Source of the DNA: Isorropodon fossajaponicum endosymbiont JTNG4
Lineage (GTDB): Bacteria; Pseudomonadota; Gammaproteobacteria; PS1; Pseudothioglobaceae
DNA: 32,000 nt
Direction: 5' to 3'
NCBI RefSeq assembly: GCF_016592615.1
Contig: NZ_AP013043.1
Location: 690,001 to 722,000 of the forward strand
Made by a program: the position numbers and the translations under genes
In this document: positions 1,936-25,452 of the stretch, piece by piece
Numbering within the stretch: position 1 is the first letter of the stretch
Layout of the letters: each line of letters opens with the position of its first letter
The notes under the pieces: generated by a model
What the model saw: the letters and a program-made list of their open reading frames with translations, nothing else
What the model was told of the DNA's origin: nothing
Databases searched by the model: none

Positions 1936-2000
1936 TGCAATAGTCTAATTTTATTGGACACAAAGATAGCCTTATAATACAAACCATAAGGAGGTCAGTA

Positions 2001-2351
2001 ATGACACAATATAAATCAAGAAAACAACGAGTGACTTTTACCGTTGAACATTCTGTTCAATACCCCCTTGAGGGGGGAACACTAGATTATGCCAAACTCA
2101 TGGTGCATGAGAATTACACCAATAAAAAAATCATGATAATATCAGGAGCTTGCTCCTCAGCAGTTAGCAGATGGAGAAAACAATACCTAGCAGAGCTTGG
2201 TGGACAAACACCAGAGTCAGGCAAAGCGCTGACTTCTGAACAACAAACAATACAACTGCTTGAGAAACAACTTTGGCGCGCACAAAGGGACAATGAAATC
2301 TTAAAAAAGGCAACAGCCTTGTTCGCTGTGGACAATCACCAAGTGATATGA
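2001..2351 (+). CDS. IS3-family transposase OrfA (HTH), intact in this copy
   Basis: The 116-aa ORF has the helix-turn-helix/leucine-zipper-like sequence ...SGACSSAVSRWRKQY...QLLEKQLWRAQRDNEILKKA. A GGAGG Shine-Dalgarno lies upstream of the ATG. Confidence 0.85.
   Translation: MTQYKSRKQRVTFTVEHSVQYPLEGGTLDYAKLMVHENYTNKKIMIISGACSSAVSRWRKQYLAELGGQTPESGKALTSEQQTIQLLEKQLWRAQRDNEILKKATALFAVDNHQVI
2303..2309 (+). promoter_or_regulatory. Candidate -1 programmed ribosomal frameshift heptamer A_AAA_AAG (orfA to orfB frame)
   Basis: The orfA codons are tt(A AAA AAG). The -1 frame stays open from here through ...NKACQQYNTKEL and into the orfB frame. Confidence 0.6.
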
Positions 2352-2476
2352 TTATCAAGATAAACAAGGCTTGCCAACAATACAATACTAAAGAATTATG
2401 AGCATTACTCAAACTTCCTCGCAGTAGTTATTACTATCAAGTCAAAGATAAGCGAGTAAACAACAACACCAATGCT

Positions 2477-3205
2477 ATGATTAAATTAATCAAACAAACT
2501 GCTATTGAAGTTGGATACACCTATGGCAAACGCAGAATGCGGGTAGTTTTGAATAACCAAGGTTATAACATTGGTATTTACCAAACCGCAACGCTAATGA
2601 AAAAAGCCAATGTAGTTGCCATACGCCCAAGAAAGCGTCATTATTACCCTAATACTAGATTGATGTTTAAAAAGGCAAAAAACCTATTAAATCGTGTGTT
2701 TGAGCAGCAATCAATTAATACGCATTGGGTTGGTGATATTACCTATATCAAAACCTATCAAGGTGGGAGTTATTTAGCCAGTGTGTTGGATTTAGGCTCA
2801 AGACAAGTTGTTGGTTGGGCATTGTCAAAACAGCCTAATGCTCAGTTGGCAAAGGATGCGCTTAGTAATGCTGTGTCTAGACACCAGCCCAATACAAATA
2901 AACACATGTTCCACTCTGATCAAGGGACTCAATACTCTTCTAAAGTTTTTATTGATTATTGCAACAAGAACAACATTACTCAAAGCATGAGCAGGCGAGG
3001 TAATTGTTGGGATAATGCGGTCATGGAGCGTTTCTTTAGAAGTCTGAAGACTGAGAGATTAAATTATCAAAGTTTTGCAAATCATAGTGAAGTCGTGCAA
3101 AATGTAGAGGGTTATATCTACTTGTATAATTACAAAAGGATTCATTCAGCGATTGGGTATTTAACACCTGCTCAAAAGATGGCTGAATTGAAAAAAGCGG
3201 CTTGA
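2477..3205 (+). CDS. IS3-family transposase OrfB (DDE/rve integrase core). The OrfAB fusion frame is interrupted by an upstream in-frame TGA.
   Basis: The 242 aa run from an internal ATG and include HWVGDITYI...HSDQGTQYSS...GNCWDNAVMERFFRSLKTE. The same frame is open upstream (ALLKLPRSSYYYQ...) back to a TGA at 2399-2401. Confidence 0.85.
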   Translation: MIKLIKQTAIEVGYTYGKRRMRVVLNNQGYNIGIYQTATLMKKANVVAIRPRKRHYYPNTRLMFKKAKNLLNRVFEQQSINTHWVGDITYIKTYQGGSYLASVLDLGSRQVVGWALSKQPNAQLAKDALSNAVSRHQPNTNKHMFHSDQGTQYSSKVFIDYCNKNNITQSMSRRGNCWDNAVMERFFRSLKTERLNYQSFANHSEVVQNVEGYIYLYNYKRIHSAIGYLTPAQKMAELKKAA

Positions 3206-3234
3206 AATGTGTCCAAGTAGGTTAGAGCATTGCA

Positions 3235-5602: not shown

Positions 5603-6319
5603 ATGGGTACGCTTAAACACATCGCAATTATCATGGACGGCAATGGTCGTTGGGCATCAAAACGCTCTTTACCCCGCATTCTGGGACACCAACAAGGGAT
5701 TAAAGCGGTGTGTGGTGTTGTTAAAGCTTGTGCAATACGCGGTATTAAAACACTGACCTTGTTTGCTTTTAGTAGCGAGAATAAAAACCGTTCGACTGAA
5801 GAAGTCTTTTTGTTATTTAAACTATTTCTTGGTGTGCTTAAACAAGGGGTTAAAAAACTCAATGAGCACAATATCAAACTAAAAATAATTGGGGATATGT
5901 CTTTATTTCCTGCCAAAATCCAACAAACAGCACTTGATGCACAGGCACTACTCGCTAGCAATACTGGTCTAACGCTAGTGATTGCAGCCAATTATGGTGG
6001 TCAATGGGACATTGCTCAAGCAGCAGCCAAGATCGCACAAGCAGCTATTGCTGGCAACATAAAAGCCAATAATATTAATGTGGATAGCTTCTCACAATAT
6101 CTGTCATTAGCCAATGAGCCAACTGTTGATTTGTTAATTCGTACTAGTGGTGAACTTAGGATTAGTAATTTTTTACTGTGGGATATTGCTTATAGTGAGT
6201 TTTATTTCACAGAAACACTGTGGCCAGATTTTAGCGAGTCTGAATTAAACAAAGCCATCACCAACTTTAATAATTGTAATCGGCGTTTTGGCACAAGACT
6301 TAAAGAAAAACCATGCTAA
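5603..6319 (+). CDS. uppS: Di-trans,poly-cis-undecaprenyl diphosphate synthase
   Basis: HIAIIMDGNGRWA, FAFSSENKNRSTEEV and IRTSGELRISNFLLWDIAYSEFYF are canonical UppS motifs. Confidence 0.93.
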   Translation: MGTLKHIAIIMDGNGRWASKRSLPRILGHQQGIKAVCGVVKACAIRGIKTLTLFAFSSENKNRSTEEVFLLFKLFLGVLKQGVKKLNEHNIKLKIIGDMSLFPAKIQQTALDAQALLASNTGLTLVIAANYGGQWDIAQAAAKIAQAAIAGNIKANNINVDSFSQYLSLANEPTVDLLIRTSGELRISNFLLWDIAYSEFYFTETLWPDFSESELNKAITNFNNCNRRFGTRLKEKPC

Positions 6320-10447: not shown

Positions 10448-10526
10448 TGCGTTGACTAGCGTAGCTTGGGAACTGTTTACCCCACTGGTATTCAAACTGC
10501 AATGCTCTAACCTACTTGGACACATT

Positions 10527-11255
10527 TCAAGCCGCTTTTTTCAATTCAGCCATCTTTTGAGCAGGTGTTAAATACCCAATCGCTGAATGAATCCTTTTGT
10601 AATTATACAAGTAGATATAACCCTCTACATTTTGCACGACTTCACTATGATTTGCAAAACTTTGATAATTTAATCTCTCAGTCTTCAGACTTCTAAAGAA
10701 ACGCTCCATGACCGCATTATCCCAACAATTACCTCGCCTGCTCATGCTTTGAGTAATGTTGTTCTTGTTGCAATAATCAATAAAAACTTTAGAAGAGTAT
10801 TGAGTCCCTTGATCAGAGTGGAACATGTGTTTATTTGTATTGGGCTGGTGTCTAGACACAGCATTACTAAGCGCATCCTTTGCCAACTGAGCATTAGGCT
10901 GTTTTGACAATGCCCAACCAACAACTTGTCTTGAGCCTAAATCCAACACACTGGCTAAATAACTCCCACCTTGATAGGTTTTGATATAGGTAATATCACC
11001 AACCCAATGCGTATTAATTGATTGCTGCTCAAACACACGATTTAATAGGTTTTTTGCCTTTTTAAACATCAATCTAGTATTAGGGTAATAATGACGCTTT
11101 CTTGGGCGTATGGCAACTACATTGGCTTTTTTCATTAGCGTTGCAGTTTGGTAAATACCAATGTTATAACCTTGGTTATTCAAAACTACTCGCATTCTGC
11201 GTTTGCCATAGGTGTATCCAACTTCAATAGCAGTTTGTTTGATTAATTTAATCAT
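10527..11255 (-). CDS. IS3-family transposase OrfB (identical protein to 2477-3205)
   Basis: The ORF-track translation is identical to copy A OrfB (242 aa). Confidence 0.85.
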   Translation of the reverse strand: MIKLIKQTAIEVGYTYGKRRMRVVLNNQGYNIGIYQTATLMKKANVVAIRPRKRHYYPNTRLMFKKAKNLLNRVFEQQSINTHWVGDITYIKTYQGGSYLASVLDLGSRQVVGWALSKQPNAQLAKDALSNAVSRHQPNTNKHMFHSDQGTQYSSKVFIDYCNKNNITQSMSRRGNCWDNAVMERFFRSLKTERLNYQSFANHSEVVQNVEGYIYLYNYKRIHSAIGYLTPAQKMAELKKAA

Positions 11256-11380
11256 AGCGTTGGTGTTGTTGTTTACTCGCTTATCTTTGACTTGATAGTA
11301 ATAACTACTGCGAGGAAGTTTGAGTAATGCTCATAATTCTTTAGTATTGTATTGTTGGCAAGCCTTGTTTATCTTGATAA

Positions 11381-11732
11381 TCATATCACTTGGTGATTGT
11401 CCACAGCGAACAAGGCTGTTGCCTTTTTTAAGATTTCATTGTCCCTTTGTGCGCGCCAAAGTTGTTTCTCAAGCAGTTGTATTGTTTGTTGTTCAGAAGT
11501 CAGCGCTTTGCCTGACTCTGGTGTTTGTCCACCAAGCTCTGCTAGGTATTGTTTTCTCCATCTGCTAACTGCTGAGGAGCAAGCTCCTGATATTATCATG
11601 ATTTTTTTTATTGGTGTAATTCTCATGCACCATGAGTTTGGCATAATCTAGTGTTCCCCCCTCAAGGGGGTATTGAACAGAATGTTCAACGGTAAAAGTC
11701 ACTCGTTGTTTTCTTGATTTATATTGTGTCAT
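11381..11732 (-). pseudogene. IS3-family OrfA, frameshifted in this copy
   Basis: A T8 run at 11602-11609 (A8 on the coding strand) replaces the A7 of copy A (2124-2130). This separates the first ~38 codons (ATG at 11732) from the rest (ORF 11381-11644). Confidence 0.8.
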
Positions 11733-11797
11733 TACTGACCTCCTTATGGTTTGTATTATAAGGCTATCTTTGTGTCCAATAAAATTAGACTATTGCA

Positions 11798-17132: not shown

Positions 17133-17333
17133 GTGGCTGATCTATGCCGTGAATACGCAATGTCTCAAGCCACATTTTACAAATGGAGATCTAAATACGG
17201 TGATACAGATTTTGTCTCTATGGTTAAACGCTTAAAAGAGCTAGAATCAGAAAATGCTCAATTCAAGCGTATGTATGCTGAGAGTGAGTTGAAACTGCAA
17301 ATTACAAAGGATGCCTTAGCAAAAAAGTTCTAA
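17133..17333 (+). pseudogene. IS3-family OrfA remnant (N-terminus missing)
   Basis: (ILKQNQSGIS)VADLCREYAMSQATFYKWRSKYG...RLKELESENAQFKRMYAE. An in-frame stop lies about 14 codons upstream and there is no proper start. Confidence 0.75.
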
Positions 17334-17348
17334 AGCCATCCCAGTGGC

Positions 17349-17760
17349 GTGAGGATGGCTTTAAACATCAATGAACAAAATAAGAACACAAGTATCAAAC
17401 TTATTTACGAAGTTTGTAGCATTAGTAAAAGCACTTATTATTATCAACCAAAACTCAGTGATGACAATGCTTTAATTGCCGATTGTCTACTGCGCTTAAC
17501 CGCAACGCACAAGCGTTGGGGTTTTAAACTGTGCTATTTATATCTACGTAATGTTAAAGACTACAAATTTAACCATAAACGAGTGTATCGCATTTACCAA
17601 GAACTGGAGCTCAATCTAAGAATCAAGCCAAGAAGAAGAATCAAAAGAGATAAACCCGAAGCACTGAGTGTGCCAACAACTATTAACCAAACTTGGTCAA
17701 TGGATTTTATGTCAGACTCACTCACTGATGGCAGGCACATTAGAACTTTTAATGTTGTCG
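17349..17760 (+). pseudogene. IS3-family OrfB remnant (N-terminal third only, no DDE core)
   Basis: ...CSISKSTYYYQPK...HKRWGFKLCYLYLRN...FNHKRVYRIYQELELNLRIKPRRR...NQTWSMDFMSDSLTDGRHIRTFNVVDY. Similarity then ends at a C7 run (17764-17770). Confidence 0.75.
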
Positions 17761-17761
17761 A

Positions 17762-18135
17762 TTACCCCCCCGCACCTCAGTTGGCTAAAAAAGGCGACCC
17801 ATGGTCAAAGGTTAAGACTTGCGTTACTGGCAATAGTGTTAATGAATGCGTGTGTAAAGATGATGTACAGACGGTCTGTAATATGCCAACCATGTAGGTA
17901 ACCGTTTCTTTCCGTGATGCAATTAAATTATCCTTTGCCAAAGTTTCTCAGGTTAAAAATAGTGCATTTGCTAATTCAGGTGCTGATTTTTCACCATGTT
18001 TGGTGCGTAAACATGGTGGAAAGCTTCCATTCCAGTTGAGTTCAGTAAACAGTACGCATTGGCAATATTATATTGAAAACAATATTTACTATAAAAAATT
18101 CACTGTTAGTTTAGAGACGAAGCTTGATTTCTGAA
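17762..18135 (+). other. Unassigned coding-like sequence in the same frame as the 18138 ORF, interrupted by TAG (17895-17897) and ending at TGA (18133-18135)
   Basis: The translation is PPAPQLAKKGDPWSKVKTCVTGNSVNECVCKDDVQTVCNMPTM*VTVSFRDAIKLSFAKVSQVKNSAFANSGADFSPCLVRKHGGKLPFQLSSVNSTHWQYYIENNIYYKKFTVSLETKLDF*. I recognise no family. Confidence 0.25.
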
Positions 18136-18549: not shown

Positions 18550-19881
18550 TTAGCGTAGAGTTACTAGCTCCTCAGCACTACTGGGGTGTATAGCGATTGT
18601 GTCGTCAAACTGCTTCTTAGTCGCCCCCATTTTGATGGCTACTGCAAATCCTTGCAATATTTCATCAGCACCGTGTCCCATGATATGACAGCCGACGACT
18701 TTTTCATCATCACCTGCACATACTAATTTAAGTGCTGTGGTGGTTTTGTGGTTAAGTAAAGCATCTGCCATTGGGGTAAAACTTGAAGTGTAAATTTTGA
18801 CTTTATCAAATTTTTTATTGGCCTCAATCTCCGTGAGTCCAATAGTGCCAATCGGTGGGTGTGAGAAAACCACAGTGGAAATATTACTGTAATCTAAATG
18901 CCTATCGGTCATATTGTTATATAGCCTATCAGATAATCTTCTACCCGCTGCAATCGCTACAGGTGTGAGCGGTGTTCTGCCTGTGGCATCGCCGAGTGCA
19001 AAAATATTATCTACATTGGTCACTTGAAACTTATCTGTTGGAATAAATCCGCGTTGGTCGCATTCAACACCTGCATTTTCCAAACCAAGATGTTGCGTCA
19101 TTGGGTCCCTACCAACCGCCCAAATGATTTGGTCAAAACCACTAAACTCACCATGATTAGTAAATATCGTTTTATCGGCTGAAACTTTATCAATCGCAGT
19201 GCCATGATGAAGGGTAATACCGTGAGCGGTATAGTCTTTATCCAAGGCTTCTTGAATCATGGTATCAAAACCACGCAATAAGGTATCAGCTCTGCCGAAA
19301 ATCTCAACTTTACTGCCCAGTGCATTCAAAACACCTGCAAGTTCCACGCCAATATAACCGCCGCCAATAACCGCTACTTTTTTGGGTAATGTTTCTAATT
19401 TAAAAAAACCATCTGAGGTGATACCATACTGTGCACCTTCAATATTCGGAATAGATGGCTCGCCACCGGGTGATAATACAATATGGTTTGCTGTGTAAGT
19501 TTTACCATTCACAGATACCATATTTTTATCGACTAATTTGCCAAAGCCATGAATATAATCAATACCTAATTTCTCTAAATAGCCGTCATACCAGTTGGTA
19601 ATACCTTTGATATAGTTATCGCGACCTTGTTTGAGTTTTTTCCATGAGAAGTTTTTAACCTCAATATCAAAACCAAAGCCTTGTGCATTGTTAATCTGTG
19701 TGGCAGTATTGGCGGCAAACCACATCACTTTTTTAGGTACGCAACCCACATTCACACAAGTGCCACCAATGGTTTTTACCTCAATGACTAAGCATTTTTT
19801 GCCGTATTCACTGGCGCGTTCAACGGCTGAAAGTCCACCAGAGCCTGCACCAATTGCAATCATATCATAATGTTTTATCAT
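18550..19881 (-). CDS. gor: Glutathione-disulfide reductase
   Basis: [14 protein letters not shown], the redox-active [13 protein letters not shown], the second dinucleotide fold [13 protein letters not shown], and the C-terminal [12 protein letters not shown] are present. The start is set at the ATG preceded by GGAGA; the ORF track extends 4 codons to a TTG. Confidence 0.93.
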
Positions 19882-19890
19882 TTTTTTCTC

Positions 19891-19919
19891 CAATAAATAA
19901 AAAGGGGCTCACGCCCCTT
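19891..19919 (-). terminator. Intrinsic terminator downstream of the EncFtn-like gene
   Basis: The minus strand reads AAGGGGC-GTGA-GCCCCTT followed by TTTATTTATT. Confidence 0.6.
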
Positions 19920-19938: not shown

Positions 19939-20223
19939 TTAGTGTGTAAACGGTTTGTCAGTAAAAAGATAGTCTTTGAGCTCTTTGTCAAAAACCTTAT
20001 CCTTGCGTCTAATCCACTCTAACACCATTGCCGCGTGTTCTTTTTCTTCATCACGATTATGTGCCAAAATCGCTGATAATTCGCTGTCTTGACACGCATC
20101 AATGCGCTGATGATACCAATCAATTGCCTCTAATTCCTCCATCAAAGACACAATCGCCTTGTGCATGTCCTTGGTTTCTTGTGTTAAATTTTCTTCTGCT
20201 TCGTGGTAGCCTTTATTTGCCAT
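19939..20223 (-). CDS. Encapsulated-ferritin (EncFtn) family ferritin-like protein, lacking a C-terminal targeting extension
   Basis: HKAIVSLMEELEAIDWYHQRIDACQDSELSAILAHNRDEEKEHAAMVLEWIRRKD...YLFTDKP matches my memory of R. rubrum EncFtn (HRAIVSVMEELEAVDWYDQRVDASTDPELTAILAHNRDEEKEHAAMTLEWLRRND...YLFTEGP). The ORF ends 4 codons later. Confidence 0.85.
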   Translation of the reverse strand: MANKGYHEAEENLTQETKDMHKAIVSLMEELEAIDWYHQRIDACQDSELSAILAHNRDEEKEHAAMVLEWIRRKDKVFDKELKDYLFTDKPFTH

Positions 20224-20232
20224 GATTTTTTC

Positions 20233-21655
20233 TTATAAATTCTTCATTATAATTTTAATTCTATGTGCATAATCACTATCTGCCTTATTAAATTGTTCAA
20301 GCATTTTTTGTTGCACTCCTGTTATTGCTTACGATAGACCTTCAGCAATTGTAGTAGCGAGTTGACTTTTTTGTGACTCATTCATCAATCTAAATAAATC
20401 ACCTGCTTGCTGGTAATAATCCTGCGTTTCTACAGTATCAAAGCGATTTATCCAAGCATTTTCTTCAACAGGAATTGGTGGTTCTGCAAGTGTTGATTTT
20501 GGCACTGGTGCGCCATCGTTAATTTGACTATTGGGATAAAAGCTAACTTTATTGGTTTGAATTTGAGCACCACCTGCTGGACAAATTCCTGCCATTTTTC
20601 CATCCCGCTGATAATGATTAACAGGGTATTTCGCTGCATTGACAGGAATTTGGTTGGCATTGACACCCACACGGTAACGATGTGTATCTGGATAGGTCAA
20701 TAATCTTGCTTGTAACATTTTATCAGGTGATGCGCCAATTCCTGGTATTAAGTTGCCAGGGAAAAAGCAAGCTTGCTCAGTTTCGGCAAAATAATTTTCA
20801 ACATTACGATTTAATTCTAGTTACCCTACTTCTATCAATGGAAAATCAGCATGTGGCCAAGCTTTGGTTAAATCAAATGGATTGATATGATAATTTTTCA
20901 CTTCATTCTCGCTCATTATTTGCACTTTAGCTGTCCAACTAGGGTAATTGCCTTTATCAATCGCATTGATTAAATCTTCTTGCGCACCGAATGGACATGC
21001 TTTTGCTGCTTCAGCATTGGTTAGATTTTTAATACCTTGATTGGTTTTGAAATGCCATTTAAACCAAACTCGCTCGCCTTTATCGTTCCAAAAACTAAAG
21101 GTATGAGAACTAAAGCCATGTATATTTTGATAACTAGCAGGAATACCCCTATCTGACATTAAAATGGTTATTTGGTGTAATGATTGAGGGTGGTTTGCCC
21201 AAAATTCATACATTGCTACTGGGTCTGGCATGTTGGTGCGTGGGTTTTTCTTTTGTGAATGGATAAAGTCAGGGAAGTTAATACCATCTCTTAAAAAGAA
21301 AACAGGCGTATTGTTGCCCACCATATCGTAGATGCCTTCGTTTGTATAAAATTTTAAAGCAAACCCTCTAGGGTCTCTAGCATAATCACTGGAGTCTTGT
21401 CCACCACCCACGGTGGAAAAGTGTGCAAATACTTCTGTTTTTTGTCCAATTTTTTGTAAAAAATTGGCAATGGTTTTATCTTTTAAAGATTTTGTAACCG
21501 TAAATGTGTCATAAGCACCTGTACCTCTAGCATGCACCACCCGCTCTGGAATGCGCTCACGATTAAAATGTGCTAACTTTTCAAAAACATAATGATTATC
21601 AAAAGTCAAAGCACCTCTCTCACCTACAGTGATACTGTTGTCACCATCCACTATC
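20233..21655 (-). pseudogene. katA: Monofunctional heme catalase (small-subunit type) with two in-frame TAA stops and a missing 5' end
   Basis: FNRERIPERVVHARGTGAY, DPRGFALKFYT, NTPVFFLRD and RLLTYPDTHRYRVG are catalase blocks. In-frame TAA stops sit at 20821-20823 (...PLIEVG*LELNRNVENYFAE) and 20329-20331 (...IAEGLS*AITGVQQKMLEQFNKADSDY...*). The only possible start is a TTG inside the prx 3' end. Confidence 0.85.
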
Positions 21656-22087
21656 TGGCTCAATAAACATTTTTTCAATCACACCATTTTTAACTAACAT
21701 GACGTAGCGCCACGACCTATCACCAAATCCCAAGGTGGTTTTACTGACCAGCATGCCCATCATATTTGTAAATTCACCATTGCCATCAGGCATTATGGTG
21801 ATATTTTCGGCTTCTTGGTCTTTTTTCCATTCGTTCATTACAAAGGTGTCATTGACTGAAATACAAATAATTTCATCAACACCATTATCTTTAAAAACAG
21901 GGGCTAATTCATTAAACCGTGGTAAGTGAGAAGATGAACAAGTGGGTATGTAAGCGCCTGGCAATGCAAAAACAATCACGATTTTATTGTTAAAAATATT
22001 GTGCGTATTGACATCTTGCCACTGATGATTGTTTTGGATTTTAAAAGTCATTGACGGGATATTTTTCCCAGTTCTATTTACCAACAT
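21641..22087 (-). CDS. Prx5-type peroxiredoxin (AhpC/TSA family), probably 3'-truncated
   Basis: It is nearly colinear with the Prx domain of the Haemophilus Prx-Grx hybrid as I remember it ([22 protein letters not shown]...[10 protein letters not shown]...PDGNGEFT...[21 protein letters not shown]). Here the motif reads [15 protein letters not shown], and the ORF ends at FIEPDSGW*. Confidence 0.8.
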
Positions 22088-22152
22088 AGGCTGTTCTTTG
22101 ATTAAAAAGTTACCATCTTACGTAACATTAATCATTAAGTAAAACGAATAAT

Positions 22153-22171
22153 ATTGATTATAATAATCGAT
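22153..22171. promoter_or_regulatory. Candidate LysR/OxyR-type operator (imperfect dyad) in the prx / oxyR-like divergent region
   Basis: ATTGATTAT-a-ATAATCGAT has 8 of 9 positions symmetrical and lies 20 nt upstream of the regulator ATG. The AT-rich background lowers its significance. Confidence 0.3.
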
Positions 22172-22190
22172 AAAAACGATTATTAATATA

Positions 22191-23057
22191 ATGACGCCTT
22201 CTATTAAGAACTTAAACTATTTATTAGCACTTAAACAATATTTGCATTTTTCAAAAGCAGCAAAGGCGTGCTTTGTTAGCCAATCCACTTTAAGTGCAGG
22301 CATTAATAAACTAGAACAGGATTTAAATATTAAGTTGGTTGAGAGGGATAGCAAGTCTGTTTTATTTACCCCATTGGGGAAAAAAGTTGTGAAATACAGT
22401 GAAAAAGTTATATTTTCAATGCAAGATTTGGTTGCTGTTGCTAATTTAAATTTTTTTGAATCAACCATTACGATTGGTGTAATTCCAACTATTTCAGCTT
22501 ATTTATTGCCAAAATTTGTCTCTAAAATCAAAGAAAAATATCCCAAACTTAAGATTGTAGTTATTGAAGATGCCAGTCAAAATCTTTTGTTAAAAGTTGA
22601 ACAATTAAAATTAGATTTTGCAATCTTTGCCTTTCCTTTTGAAGAAAAAACAAATATTATCCAAGTCACTATTTTTAAAGATGATTTGGTTTTGGTTAAA
22701 CACAAAAACACTCAAAATAATGATTTATTGTTATTGGAGCAGAGGCACTGTTTAAGAAGCCATATTTTAGATAATAGTAATATTGATAAAACCAAAGTAT
22801 CACAATATGCTTGTGCCAGTTTAGAAACTTTAGTAACCATGGTCAATATGGAAATTGGCGTGAGTTTTTTACCAAAAATTGCCATAGATAGTGGTATTTT
22901 AGATAAATATCCAGCACTGGTTGTTGATAAAAAACAAAAAAAATTATCTCGTCATATAGGTATTATTTATCGTAAAAACAACCCAAATCAAGAAAATATT
23001 TTAGCATTAAGTTTATTTTTACAATCAAATTCTAAAGATATTTATCAAGATGTTTAA
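22191..23057 (+). CDS. LysR-family transcriptional regulator, OxyR-like
   Basis: The N-terminal HTH LNYLLALKQYLHFSKAAKACFVSQSTLSAGINKLEQDLNIKLVERDSKSVLFTPLG parallels E. coli OxyR (LEYLVALAEHRHFRRAADSCHVSQPTLSGQIRKLEDELGVMLLERTSRKVLFTQAG). It also has HCLR...SLETL and is divergent from a peroxiredoxin. Confidence 0.75.
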   Translation: MTPSIKNLNYLLALKQYLHFSKAAKACFVSQSTLSAGINKLEQDLNIKLVERDSKSVLFTPLGKKVVKYSEKVIFSMQDLVAVANLNFFESTITIGVIPTISAYLLPKFVSKIKEKYPKLKIVVIEDASQNLLLKVEQLKLDFAIFAFPFEEKTNIIQVTIFKDDLVLVKHKNTQNNDLLLLEQRHCLRSHILDNSNIDKTKVSQYACASLETLVTMVNMEIGVSFLPKIAIDSGILDKYPALVVDKKQKKLSRHIGIIYRKNNPNQENILALSLFLQSNSKDIYQDV

Positions 23058-23580
23058 TGTAGTCTTTTTCAATCCAATTGGTATCACCTGCAATCATATT
23101 ATCTGCATGAAAAGTCGGGACTTGGTTGCGAATGCTTAAATAATGGTTAGTCATTATTAGTGGTTGTAATAAGTCATCAATATGCGGAGCATTTTTTAGT
23201 ACAAAGCCTTTACCCAAATCACTACTTTTCATACTAGAAGTAGTTACAATCATAAATTTATCAGCTGGAACTTGACCGCCTTCGCCATATTCATCTGTGA
23301 TAATAAATGTTTTTTAATATAAAAGAACTTCACTCAGCCATTTGATCATAGGTGTTGGCATATTAAACCACATAATTGGCGTAATATAAATAATCCAATC
23401 TGCCCACAAAAGCTTATCAACTTCTCTATCTACATTTCAAGTGTCTTTAGTTACATCTGAAACTTTAACTTTATGGCCTTTTTTGCTAAGATGGTTATCA
23501 GTTAAATAACTTAAAAAACCATTTAGTTGCCTTTTGGCATCAAAAATTGAATAGCCTGCTGTTACTAGTAATATTTTCAT
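23032..23580 (-). pseudogene. mdaB: MdaB-like flavodoxin-fold NAD(P)H:quinone oxidoreductase with two in-frame stops
   Basis: A single 183-codon frame runs from the ATG at 23580. It reads MKILLVTAGYSIFDAKRQLNGF...DT*NVDREVDKLLWADWIIYITPIMWFNMPTPMIKWLSEVLLY*KTF..YGEGGQVPADKFMIVTTS...PTFHADNMI.... The stops are TGA at 23437-23439 and TAA at 23314-23316. It parallels E. coli MdaB (VQNFLWADVVIWQMPGWWMGAPWTVKKYIDDV...YGSGGLVQGKKYML...PTFIANDVI). Confidence 0.75.
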
Positions 23581-23855: not shown

Positions 23856-24944
23856 CTTGAATTCAACTTGCAAATGCAACACATTCCATGGGGAATGTGG
23901 CTATGAACAACTACCAACACCTAAGCCCTGAAGAACGGGCATTCATTATGATTGAGTACAACCAAGGAAGGTCTATCCGTTATATCAGCTATTTACTCAA
24001 TCGTTCACCCTCAACCATATCTAGAGAGATAAAACGTAATCTATCTAATACAATAAACAATTATTGTGCCACCACTGCAGCCAAACGTTATCAAGACAAG
24101 CGTCAACTCTGTATAAAGCCACAAAAACTAACACCAGACACTTTAATTGTATAATCAAATCAAAGAGTGGCTGGTTCACAAACAATGGTCACCTGAACAA
24201 ATATCTGGTGCATTAAAGCACTACTATCCAAGTCAAAAAGATATGCAAATTAGTCATGAAACAATTTACGGATACATTTACACTCTCCCCAAAGGTGAGC
24301 TTAAAAAAACTCATGATTCATTCATTACGACGAAGTAAATCTAAACGAGGCGTACGAGGTTCAAAGAGTGGCAGCTACAGTACTATAAAGCCAAAAGAGG
24401 ATCAACTTATTTGCCACCGACCCAAAGACATTAATGAAAGAATGATTGCAGGACATTGGGAAGGTGATTTAATTACAGGCTCTCAAAACAAACCTTGTGT
24501 CGGCACCTTGGTTGAAAGAAAAACTGGTTATTTAATACTGAATAAAATGAAAAGTAAGTCAGCTTTTGATGTACGTCAAGGGTTTGAACAAAAAATGAAA
24601 GCGATACCTGAATTCTTACGCCTGTCTATGACCTATGACAGAGGCTCTGAAATGGCACAACACTCTATCTTATCTGATAATTTAAAGATTGATGTTTACT
24701 TTGCTGATCCACATGCACCATGGCAAAAAGGGGGTCTAATGAGAATACTAACGGTTTAATCCGTCAATACTTGCCAAAGGGAGTAGATTTATCTCCTTGT
24801 AGCCAGAAAGATTTGGATGAAATTGCTTGGTTGCTCAACACTAGACCTAGAAAAAGATTTGACTTTAAAACACCACAGGATATGATGCATAGAGTTTTAA
24901 CTGAAAAATACTAACTAGTGTTGCATTTGCAAGTTGAATTCAAG
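23856..24944 (+). mobile_element. IS30-family insertion sequence (1089 bp) with perfect 27-bp terminal inverted repeats and a decayed transposase
   Basis: The left end is CTTGAATTCAACTTGCAAATGCAACAC (23856-23882). The right end is GTGTTGCATTTGCAAGTTGAATTCAAG (24918-24944). Confidence 0.85.
23888..24914 (+). pseudogene. IS30-family transposase split over four frames by three frameshifts
   Basis: The ORFs 23888-24154, 24147-24338, 24256-24759 and 24720-24914 together give YQHLSPEERAFI...RSPSTISREIKRN...WSPEQISG...HETIY.YIY...HWEGDLI...TYDRGSEM...ADPHAPWQKG / SNENTNGLIRQYLPKG...LNTRPRKRF. Confidence 0.85.
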
Positions 24945-25208: not shown

Positions 25209-25452
25209 GCACATAATTGGTATATAGTATCATTTAATATACTAAAGGAGATTAAGCCAAATATTACACAAAGAATACTTACCAAGCAATTAAGAGAACT
25301 TGAAAGTGATGGCTTAATTCATCGAAAAGTATACAAAGTGGTATCACCTAAAGTCGAGTATAGTCTTACCGGAACAGGGTGAATCACTTAAGGACGCTAT
25401 TTTTTCGTTAGAAAAATGGGGTAAGAATTACCAAAAACAAAAAAAGCTATAA
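25209..25452 (+). pseudogene. HxlR-family transcriptional regulator remnant (N-terminus deleted, 1-nt insertion near the 3' end)
   Basis: ..[50 protein letters not shown] is followed by an extra G near 25378, then [23 protein letters not shown]. It is divergent from the VOC-mdaB pseudogenes. Confidence 0.6.

Follow-up and report, generated by a model that had tools for sequence, protein, structure and literature searches.

The stretch of DNA analysed here, called the window throughout, comprises 32,000 nucleotides from the Isorropodon fossajaponicum endosymbiont JTNG4, the thioautotrophic symbiont of a vesicomyid clam and a member of the SUP05/Thioglobaceae clade. This source explains why the window is AT-rich, carries copies of insertion sequences (IS) and has so many broken genes. 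At 19939..20223, on the reverse strand, lies a gene for a short ferritin-like protein (s-FLP) of the encapsulated ferritin (EncFtn) type, surrounded by a block of oxidative-stress genes in varying states of preservation. The template for neighbour decay was the intact locus L082 of a Bathymodiolus-type SUP05 symbiont, compared by tblastn. The features of the block and its surroundings, in window coordinates, are:

18550..19881, minus strand: gor, glutathione-disulfide reductase, intact, 443 aa, ATG at 19881 (NF004776: 625.8 bits, cutoff 480)
19892..19919, minus strand: intrinsic-terminator-like hairpin AAGGGGCGTGAGCCCCTT (GGGGC-loop-GCCCC) with a T-run, in the interval between s-FLP and gor
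19939..20223, minus strand: s-FLP, short EncFtn-like ferritin-like protein, intact coding sequence including the stop codon, ATG start, 94 aa (open reading frame and profile matches)
20224..20232, minus strand: spacer of 9 nt from the ancestral catalase stop (20233-20235) to the s-FLP ATG
20233..21678, minus strand: catalase pseudogene, in-frame stops at codons 286 and 450 (frame from 21678)
21641..22087, minus strand: truncated peroxiredoxin, Prx domain only (Pfam, and tblastn against L082)
22088..22190, no strand assigned: regulatory region between the divergent genes, containing a promoter-like site and a LysR-type box of repeated ATCG/ATTCG-TTTT (ATCG-N7-CGAT)
22191..23057, plus strand: LysR-family regulator, OxyR-like, intact (HTH_1 and LysR_substrate domains, 87% identity to the L082 orthologue)
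23032..23580, minus strand: Flavodoxin_2 (NAD(P)H-quinone-reductase-like) pseudogene of the ancestral block, two in-frame stops
25233-25440, plus strand: HxlR, frameshifted; intact in L082, as is Flavodoxin_2

In the window, s-FLP, gor and the regulator are intact while the catalase, the peroxiredoxin-glutaredoxin hybrid (Prx-Grx) and the flavodoxin-like gene are inactivated. The s-FLP is 95% identical to that of L082, and residues 1-443 of Gor are covered by tblastn at 85% identity to L082 Gor. The catalase pseudogene is collinear with its L082 counterpart in one frame, having lost the start and the first ~5 codons, and the prx gene has suffered deletion of the glutaredoxin domain, which makes up residues ~156-252 of the intact hybrid in relatives. 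An initial annotation of this DNA had placed s-FLP 10 nt behind catalase; the order holds, but the spacer measures 9 nt. It had also found s-FLP free of lesions, which is right for the open reading frame but missed the Shine-Dalgarno sequence (within 20224-20240), weakened to AAGAA where five relatives have AGGAG/AGGAT. The terminator that it assigned to the gene is indeed there, as a terminator-like hairpin and T-run followed by gor. This hairpin, which with its T-run reads from 19919 to 19902, is kept in L082, L085 and L081 with changes in the loop only, and is absent from the free-living SUP05 locus L001.

The block is divergently oriented from the LysR-family gene, again as annotated, and the regulator is OxyR-like in the sense that its best NCBIfam match is OxyR (NF008361) at 166.7 bits, under the equivalog cutoff of 329. 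An HCLR motif in the regulator, seen by eye, presumably matches the Cys199 region of E. coli OxyR, and a cysteine is missing at the position we take to match E. coli C208. About 70 bp of the divergent region are conserved in L082, L090 and L001, also where catalase rather than prx comes first.

Mobile elements are frequent around the block. It is flanked on one side by a degraded IS3-like element (17133-17897) and on the other by an IS30-like transposase broken up into several reading frames (23888-24914). Elsewhere in the window, two inverted IS3-family copies of ~1.3 kb with rve and HTH_21 ORFs (1936-3234 and 10498-11797) are 100% identical, which indicates very recent IS activity in the symbiont genome, and the pair encloses a 7.3-kb housekeeping segment, an inversion substrate or composite-transposon-like arrangement. 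The entry 7110-7670/9512-10165 within this segment comprises a dxr ORF of 186 aa, with the N-terminal domain and the start of the C-terminal domain, and an ORF of 217 aa for a NIR_SIR sulfite/nitrite reductase; both are probably truncated or broken.

The family assignment of the 94-aa product is secure. Pfam EncFtn-like (PF22277) matches residues 6-89 with 144.1 bits against a cutoff of 27 (E 1.1e-42), and no other Pfam family matches at E<=0.01, so that the profile check agrees with the family named in the initial annotation. The protein also scores above the cutoff of the NCBIfam model TIGR04535, "encapsulin-associated ferritin-like protein", with 128.4 bits where 125 are required; the alignment spans model positions 1-88 of 114 and leaves out the C-terminal linker and targeting part. 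The closest structure in the Protein Data Bank (PDB) is 3K6C (NE0167 of Nitrosomonas europaea, 95 aa), matched over its full length with E 1.4e-42 and 71% identity, followed by Rhodospirillum rubrum EncFtn (PDB 5DA5, E 2.8e-33), to whose ~90-residue core the s-FLP is 62% identical. The protein does not match the four-helix-bundle profiles of classical ferritin, bacterioferritin or Dps, and in the PDB search a bacterioferritin chain (9iig) reached only E 0.41.

According to He et al. (2016; PMC5012862), Glu32, Glu62, His65 and Tyr39 make up the ferroxidase centre of R. rubrum EncFtn, and Glu31/Glu34 form an entry site. These correspond to E30, E60, H63 and Y37, and to E29/E32, of the s-FLP, and the full R. 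rubrum set E31/E32/E34/W38/Y39/H57/E61/E62/E64/H65 is present as E29/E30/E32/W36/Y37/H55/E59/E60/E62/H63, bearing out the claim that the Glu/His ligands are kept. The ferroxidase and entry/exit ligands are invariant across an alignment of 84 s-FLPs. The window copy departs from the >=90% family consensus at four positions only (E4K, R18K, R22K, N38H); the changes, K/R, N/H and E/K, are conservative, and catalytic and interface-invariant residues are intact. The 3K6C entry contains 10 chains, the protein being reported as a decamer (PMC11202242), and from the 71% identity we infer that the s-FLP likewise assembles into an annular decamer of two-helix subunits. Three further elements, Cys44, the C-terminal His94 and the N-terminal GYHE motif (residues 5-8), are invariant in the 84 s-FLPs and absent from R. 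rubrum EncFtn, which has Ser at position 44 (s-FLP numbering).

The initial annotation is accurate in nearly all that it observed, and right as to the identity and setting of the gene. It went on to suggest that a shell-less EncFtn recruited as a peroxide-stress ferroxidase would be an under-described use of the family, which overstates the novelty. A 2024 review divides encapsulin-related ferritin-like proteins into four classes, one of which is the short class, s-FLP, with 3K6C as type structure (PMC11202242). With 94 aa, a C-terminus ending LFTDKPFTH, no long disordered extension and 3K6C as closest structure, the window gene is, judged by its sequence, an ordinary member of this already named and very widespread class. 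More than 8000 clusters occur among the matches listed, at least 594 stretches were confirmed in GTDB species-representative genomes, and identity across classes of Proteobacteria is 74-90% among the matches listed. Compared with NE0167, the window protein is one residue shorter (94 against 95 aa) with the same ligand set and, as in NE0167, no linker or targeting peptide; it shares Cys44 and the terminal His and reads LFTDKPFTH where the class consensus is LFTD(E/N)KPIAHE. The two do not differ structurally; position 36 is Leu in NE0167 and Trp in the window copy and most s-FLPs. What is new relative to NE0167 is the context, namely the catalase/prx-grx/gor operon with its OxyR-like regulator in the SUP05 clade, and retention in reduced symbiont genomes. 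The first EncFtn structure was solved by molecular replacement with 3K6C as the model, though 3K6C is itself unpublished; the review gives no function for s-FLPs (PMC11202242), and our literature search found no functional study of any s-FLP.

The C-terminus sets s-FLPs apart from the targeting-peptide class (FLP-TP), represented by R. rubrum Rru_A0973 (5DA5) and H. ochraceum EncFtn (5N5F). The core ligands are common to both (E32/E62/H65/Y39, entry E31/E34 and the outer site H57/E61/E64 in R. rubrum numbering). In R. rubrum, however, the protein continues for ~40-45 residues beyond the core as a disordered linker and then a SLGIGSLK targeting peptide, whereas the window s-FLP has no linker, no SLGIGSLK, nothing resembling the targeting consensus L/F-x-V/I-x-x-L/I after a disordered stretch, and no downstream encapsulin gene. 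Its last residues are YLFTDKPFTH, of which YLFTDKPFT aligns to R. rubrum YLFTEGPIT, residues 87-95. Since these residues belong to the ordered core and precede the linker and targeting peptide of R. rubrum, the segment is no substitute for a targeting peptide, and the earlier reading of a protein that ends at its core is sustained.

We considered that the gene might be a truncated version of a longer cargo protein and rejected this. All 80 orthologues from other species, drawn from loci in GTDB species-representative genomes, stop 0-8 residues past KPIAH, so being short is normal throughout a large clade. Where database entries run to 112-159 aa, the C-terminus is still that of the short s-FLPs and the extra length is due to over-called upstream starts. 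Long orthologues of the kind that would have pointed to a truncation were thus not seen among the 80.

A search for an encapsulin shell gave a uniformly negative result. The phmmer query was the Thermotoga maritima encapsulin sequence, validated by a full-length match to 3DKT; it recovers every Family-1 shell in the PDB (T=1, T=3, T=4) at E<=3e-7. In six-frame translation of the window and 89 related loci, which carry up to 10 kb of flank on either side of s-FLP and total 1.44 Mb with the window, the query gave zero matches to a Family-1 encapsulin at E<=10. Pfam assigned the larger ORFs of the window to housekeeping genes (ispG, ubiA, hisF, uppS, cdsA, a dxr fragment, lolA, ftsK, trxB, prfB, lpxL, dnaG and a PBP) and IS transposases only, with no HK97-like ORF among them, in line with the original statement that the window holds no ORF for a shell of that fold. 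Linocin_M18 (PF04454) is not among the 25 commonest of the 136 neighbour families at the 80 loci.

These results bear on whether the s-FLP could still be encapsulin cargo, directed by its short LFTDKPIAH(E) tail, in an unconventional way, to a shell whose gene lies elsewhere in the genome. The review lists LFTD(E/N)KPIAHE as a "putative TP" and leaves encapsulation of s-FLPs, initially classed as non-encapsulated, possible; it also notes that fusion-FLPs are tethered by 8 residues only (PMC11202242); the score above the cutoff of the "encapsulin-associated" model TIGR04535 would fit this too. Cargo genes of Family-1 encapsulins, however, usually stand directly upstream of the shell gene (10.1101/085266), and not one of the 90 sequences examined has a Family-1 shell within 10 kb. 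The tail corresponds to the end of the ordered R. rubrum core, whose loading needs the ~45-residue linker and SLGIGSLK besides. The JTNG4 genome is reduced (1.45 Mb), no papers connecting encapsulins with SUP05 or Bathymodiolus symbionts were found in the literature, and, as weak evidence, the entries listed of the Andreas & Giessen encapsulin table include none from Thioglobus, SUP05 or an endosymbiont. Taken together, we regard loading into a distant shell as very improbable. Many homologues are named "encapsulin-associated ferritin-like protein" by NCBI and UniRef because TIGR04535 just passes its cutoff, and for s-FLPs this name is probably misleading.

The context of the gene was surveyed at two scales, as the initial annotation had proposed for co-occurrence with prx, kat, gor and oxyR. 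The association it envisaged is conserved in the SUP05 clade but dissolves among other species. Within the SUP05/Thioglobaceae clade, the catalase-s-FLP pair recurs with a spacer of 4-10 nt (L082-L086, L089, L090, L091, L092), usually with gor downstream and a LysR regulator divergent upstream, while Prx-Grx is variable. Some strains of the B. thermophilus symbiont (L087/L088) have no catalase, and there the prx-grx stop overlaps the s-FLP start. The s-FLP is identical across B. thermophilus symbiont strains, and L089 has a 486-aa catalase between prx-grx and s-FLP. In the symbiont of Abyssogena phaseoliformis (L081), all that is left of catalase and the regulator is a Catalase-rel piece of 70 aa and part of the LysR HTH, with s-FLP and gor still open reading frames. 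The L081 s-FLP (6001-6282, 93 aa) has lost His7, which is invariant in the other s-FLPs, and has a Y85C substitution, changes that may represent early decay.

Outside this clade, adjacency to catalase was found at 0 of 80 loci, to peroxiredoxin (Redoxin) at 2, to an OxyR-like gene at 2 and to a Gor-like gene at 5, and the 139 immediate neighbours of s-FLP at these loci fall into 136 different Pfam families. A family-wide association with prx, catalase, gor and oxyR is therefore rejected. Such heterogeneity outside the SUP05 clade indicates that the peroxide operon is a lineage-specific recruitment and not a trait of the family, whose general function, with neighbours so unrelated, need not be peroxide defence. 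Among the 80 loci, the neighbour seen most often is DUF3501, at 7 loci, followed by a CCG-domain Fe-S oxidoreductase at 6. At 6-7 of the 80 loci (L004, L010, L042, L043, L046 and others), s-FLP lies between a CCG-domain Fe-S oxidoreductase of ~455 aa and DUF3501, all on one strand; the hosts are mostly sulfur oxidisers, e.g. Ca. Thiodiazotropha and Chromatiaceae, and this forms a second recurrent context, one that has nothing to do with catalase.

Substitution rates were compared for signs that the JTNG4 gene is still under selection. Against L082, the dN/dS of s-FLP is 0.05, and the catalase and Flavodoxin_2 pseudogenes themselves give 0.11-0.13 (catalase 0.11). Low ratios in genes that are plainly dead mean that the inactivations are recent and that the pairwise ratio does not discriminate, and we do not take dN/dS to prove that selection continues. 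Retention is best supported by a qualitative observation: in two lineages that are eroding independently, those of the window and of L081, the s-FLP open reading frame has outlasted its neighbours.

The same observations can be read less favourably, with the JTNG4 s-FLP as a leftover from an operon in decay, without function or hardly expressed, and intact by chance because it measures only 285 nt. Its neighbours are pseudogenes, its Shine-Dalgarno sequence is degraded, and the ~1.4 kb of catalase pseudogene upstream, interrupted by two stops, could exert polarity on s-FLP; four substitutions fall at positions at least 90% conserved, 94 codons make a small target, and the sister copy in L081 shows the loss of His7 and the Y85C change. 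Between the two clam symbionts, dN/dS is 0.20 for s-FLP against 0.09 for gor, but the s-FLP value comes from tiny numbers, 8 non-synonymous and 8 synonymous changes. No catalytic or interface-invariant residue is altered, however, the four changes are conservative, and the promoter/operator and terminator are conserved. The L081 reading frame has, moreover, outlived the near-complete deletion of catalase, prx and regulator. Present-day expression of s-FLP in JTNG4 is uncertain, and we consider chance survival unlikely, though clearly less so than loading into a distant shell.

Biochemistry of the fold favours iron oxidation as the activity. EncFtn isolated from its shell is an active ferroxidase that does not store iron, and its Fe(III) product precipitates in vitro (PMC5012862). 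Without linker, targeting peptide or adjacent shell, the s-FLP would not serve a shell-based iron store in the known way. It is possible to imagine that the protein is not primarily a ferroxidase and acts instead as a rubrerythrin-like H2O2 peroxidase, as an iron donor or chaperone for the haem catalase, or as a redox sensor through Cys44/His94. Such roles would make sense of Cys44, His94 and GYHE, invariant in s-FLPs and absent from R. rubrum EncFtn, of the tight coupling to catalase in the SUP05 clade, with its 4-10 nt spacers, of the extreme conservation across proteobacterial classes among the matches listed, and of the CCG-domain Fe-S oxidoreductase and DUF3501 neighbours at 6-7 loci of sulfur oxidisers, which suggest a redox partnership. 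Yet every ligand of the EncFtn ferroxidase and entry/exit sites is invariant, ferroxidase is the sole activity shown for the fold (PMC5012862), and s-FLP persists where catalase has been lost, which rules it out as an accessory dedicated to catalase. A primary role other than ferroxidase thus appears rather improbable. Cys44 and His94 could still endow s-FLPs with a property that shell-bound EncFtns lack, e.g. redox gating or Fe(III) hand-off.

For the JTNG4 locus we favour a shell-independent, cytosolic decameric ferroxidase, expressed from an OxyR-type promoter together with catalase and peroxiredoxin, that lowers Fe(II) under peroxide stress; we judge this slightly more apt to hold than to fail. 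By homology, the s-FLP would form an annular decamer of two-helix subunits with di-iron ferroxidase centres (E30, E60, H63, Y37) at the dimer interfaces, and would be free in the cytosol rather than within an encapsulin. In the SUP05 clade it would be co-transcribed with catalase, and often Prx-Grx, from the conserved promoter/operator divergent from the OxyR-like LysR gene, the transcript presumably terminating at the hairpin ahead of gor. During peroxide stress it may oxidise labile Fe(II) and so forestall Fenton chemistry, taking a Dps-like place, and in JTNG4 the reading frame is intact while catalase and Prx-Grx are inactivated. What counts against this reading is that the context is clade-specific, that the LysR protein scores under the OxyR cutoff and that the Shine-Dalgarno sequence is weakened.

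The comparison with Dps is a functional one. Dps is a ferritin-superfamily ferroxidase that in E. coli belongs to the OxyR regulon, which also covers catalase, peroxiredoxin, glutaredoxin and gor functions. The parallel is a ferroxidase under a peroxide-sensing LysR regulator, with an anti-Fenton role proposed for s-FLP; there is no family-level homology, and Dps is a closed 12-mer cage where the s-FLP is predicted to be an open decameric ring. Unlike for Dps, we know of neither a storage cavity nor DNA binding for the s-FLP ring. The main gap in the anti-Fenton explanation is the Fe(III) sink: isolated EncFtn cannot keep Fe(III) soluble, and a shell-less s-FLP would thus need a partner or sink for its product.

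These considerations matter beyond one symbiont, since the class is abundant and extremely conserved, with thousands of 95-aa s-FLPs carrying the "encapsulin-associated" annotation. The broader proposal, that s-FLPs are an encapsulin-independent branch of EncFtn proteins working as Dps-like cytosolic anti-Fenton rings, wired into an OxyR-type operon in SUP05 and kept after loss of catalase and Prx-Grx, is a tentative one, to which we give somewhat less than an even chance. The modestly new elements are the clade-level peroxide-operon context and the persistence of the gene in reduced genomes, which offer a useful lead on s-FLP function. The link in the SUP05 clade to catalase, peroxiredoxin, gor and an OxyR-like regulator yields a concrete hypothesis, that of a cytosolic anti-Fenton ferroxidase, and the survival of s-FLP in eroding symbiont genomes points in the same direction.
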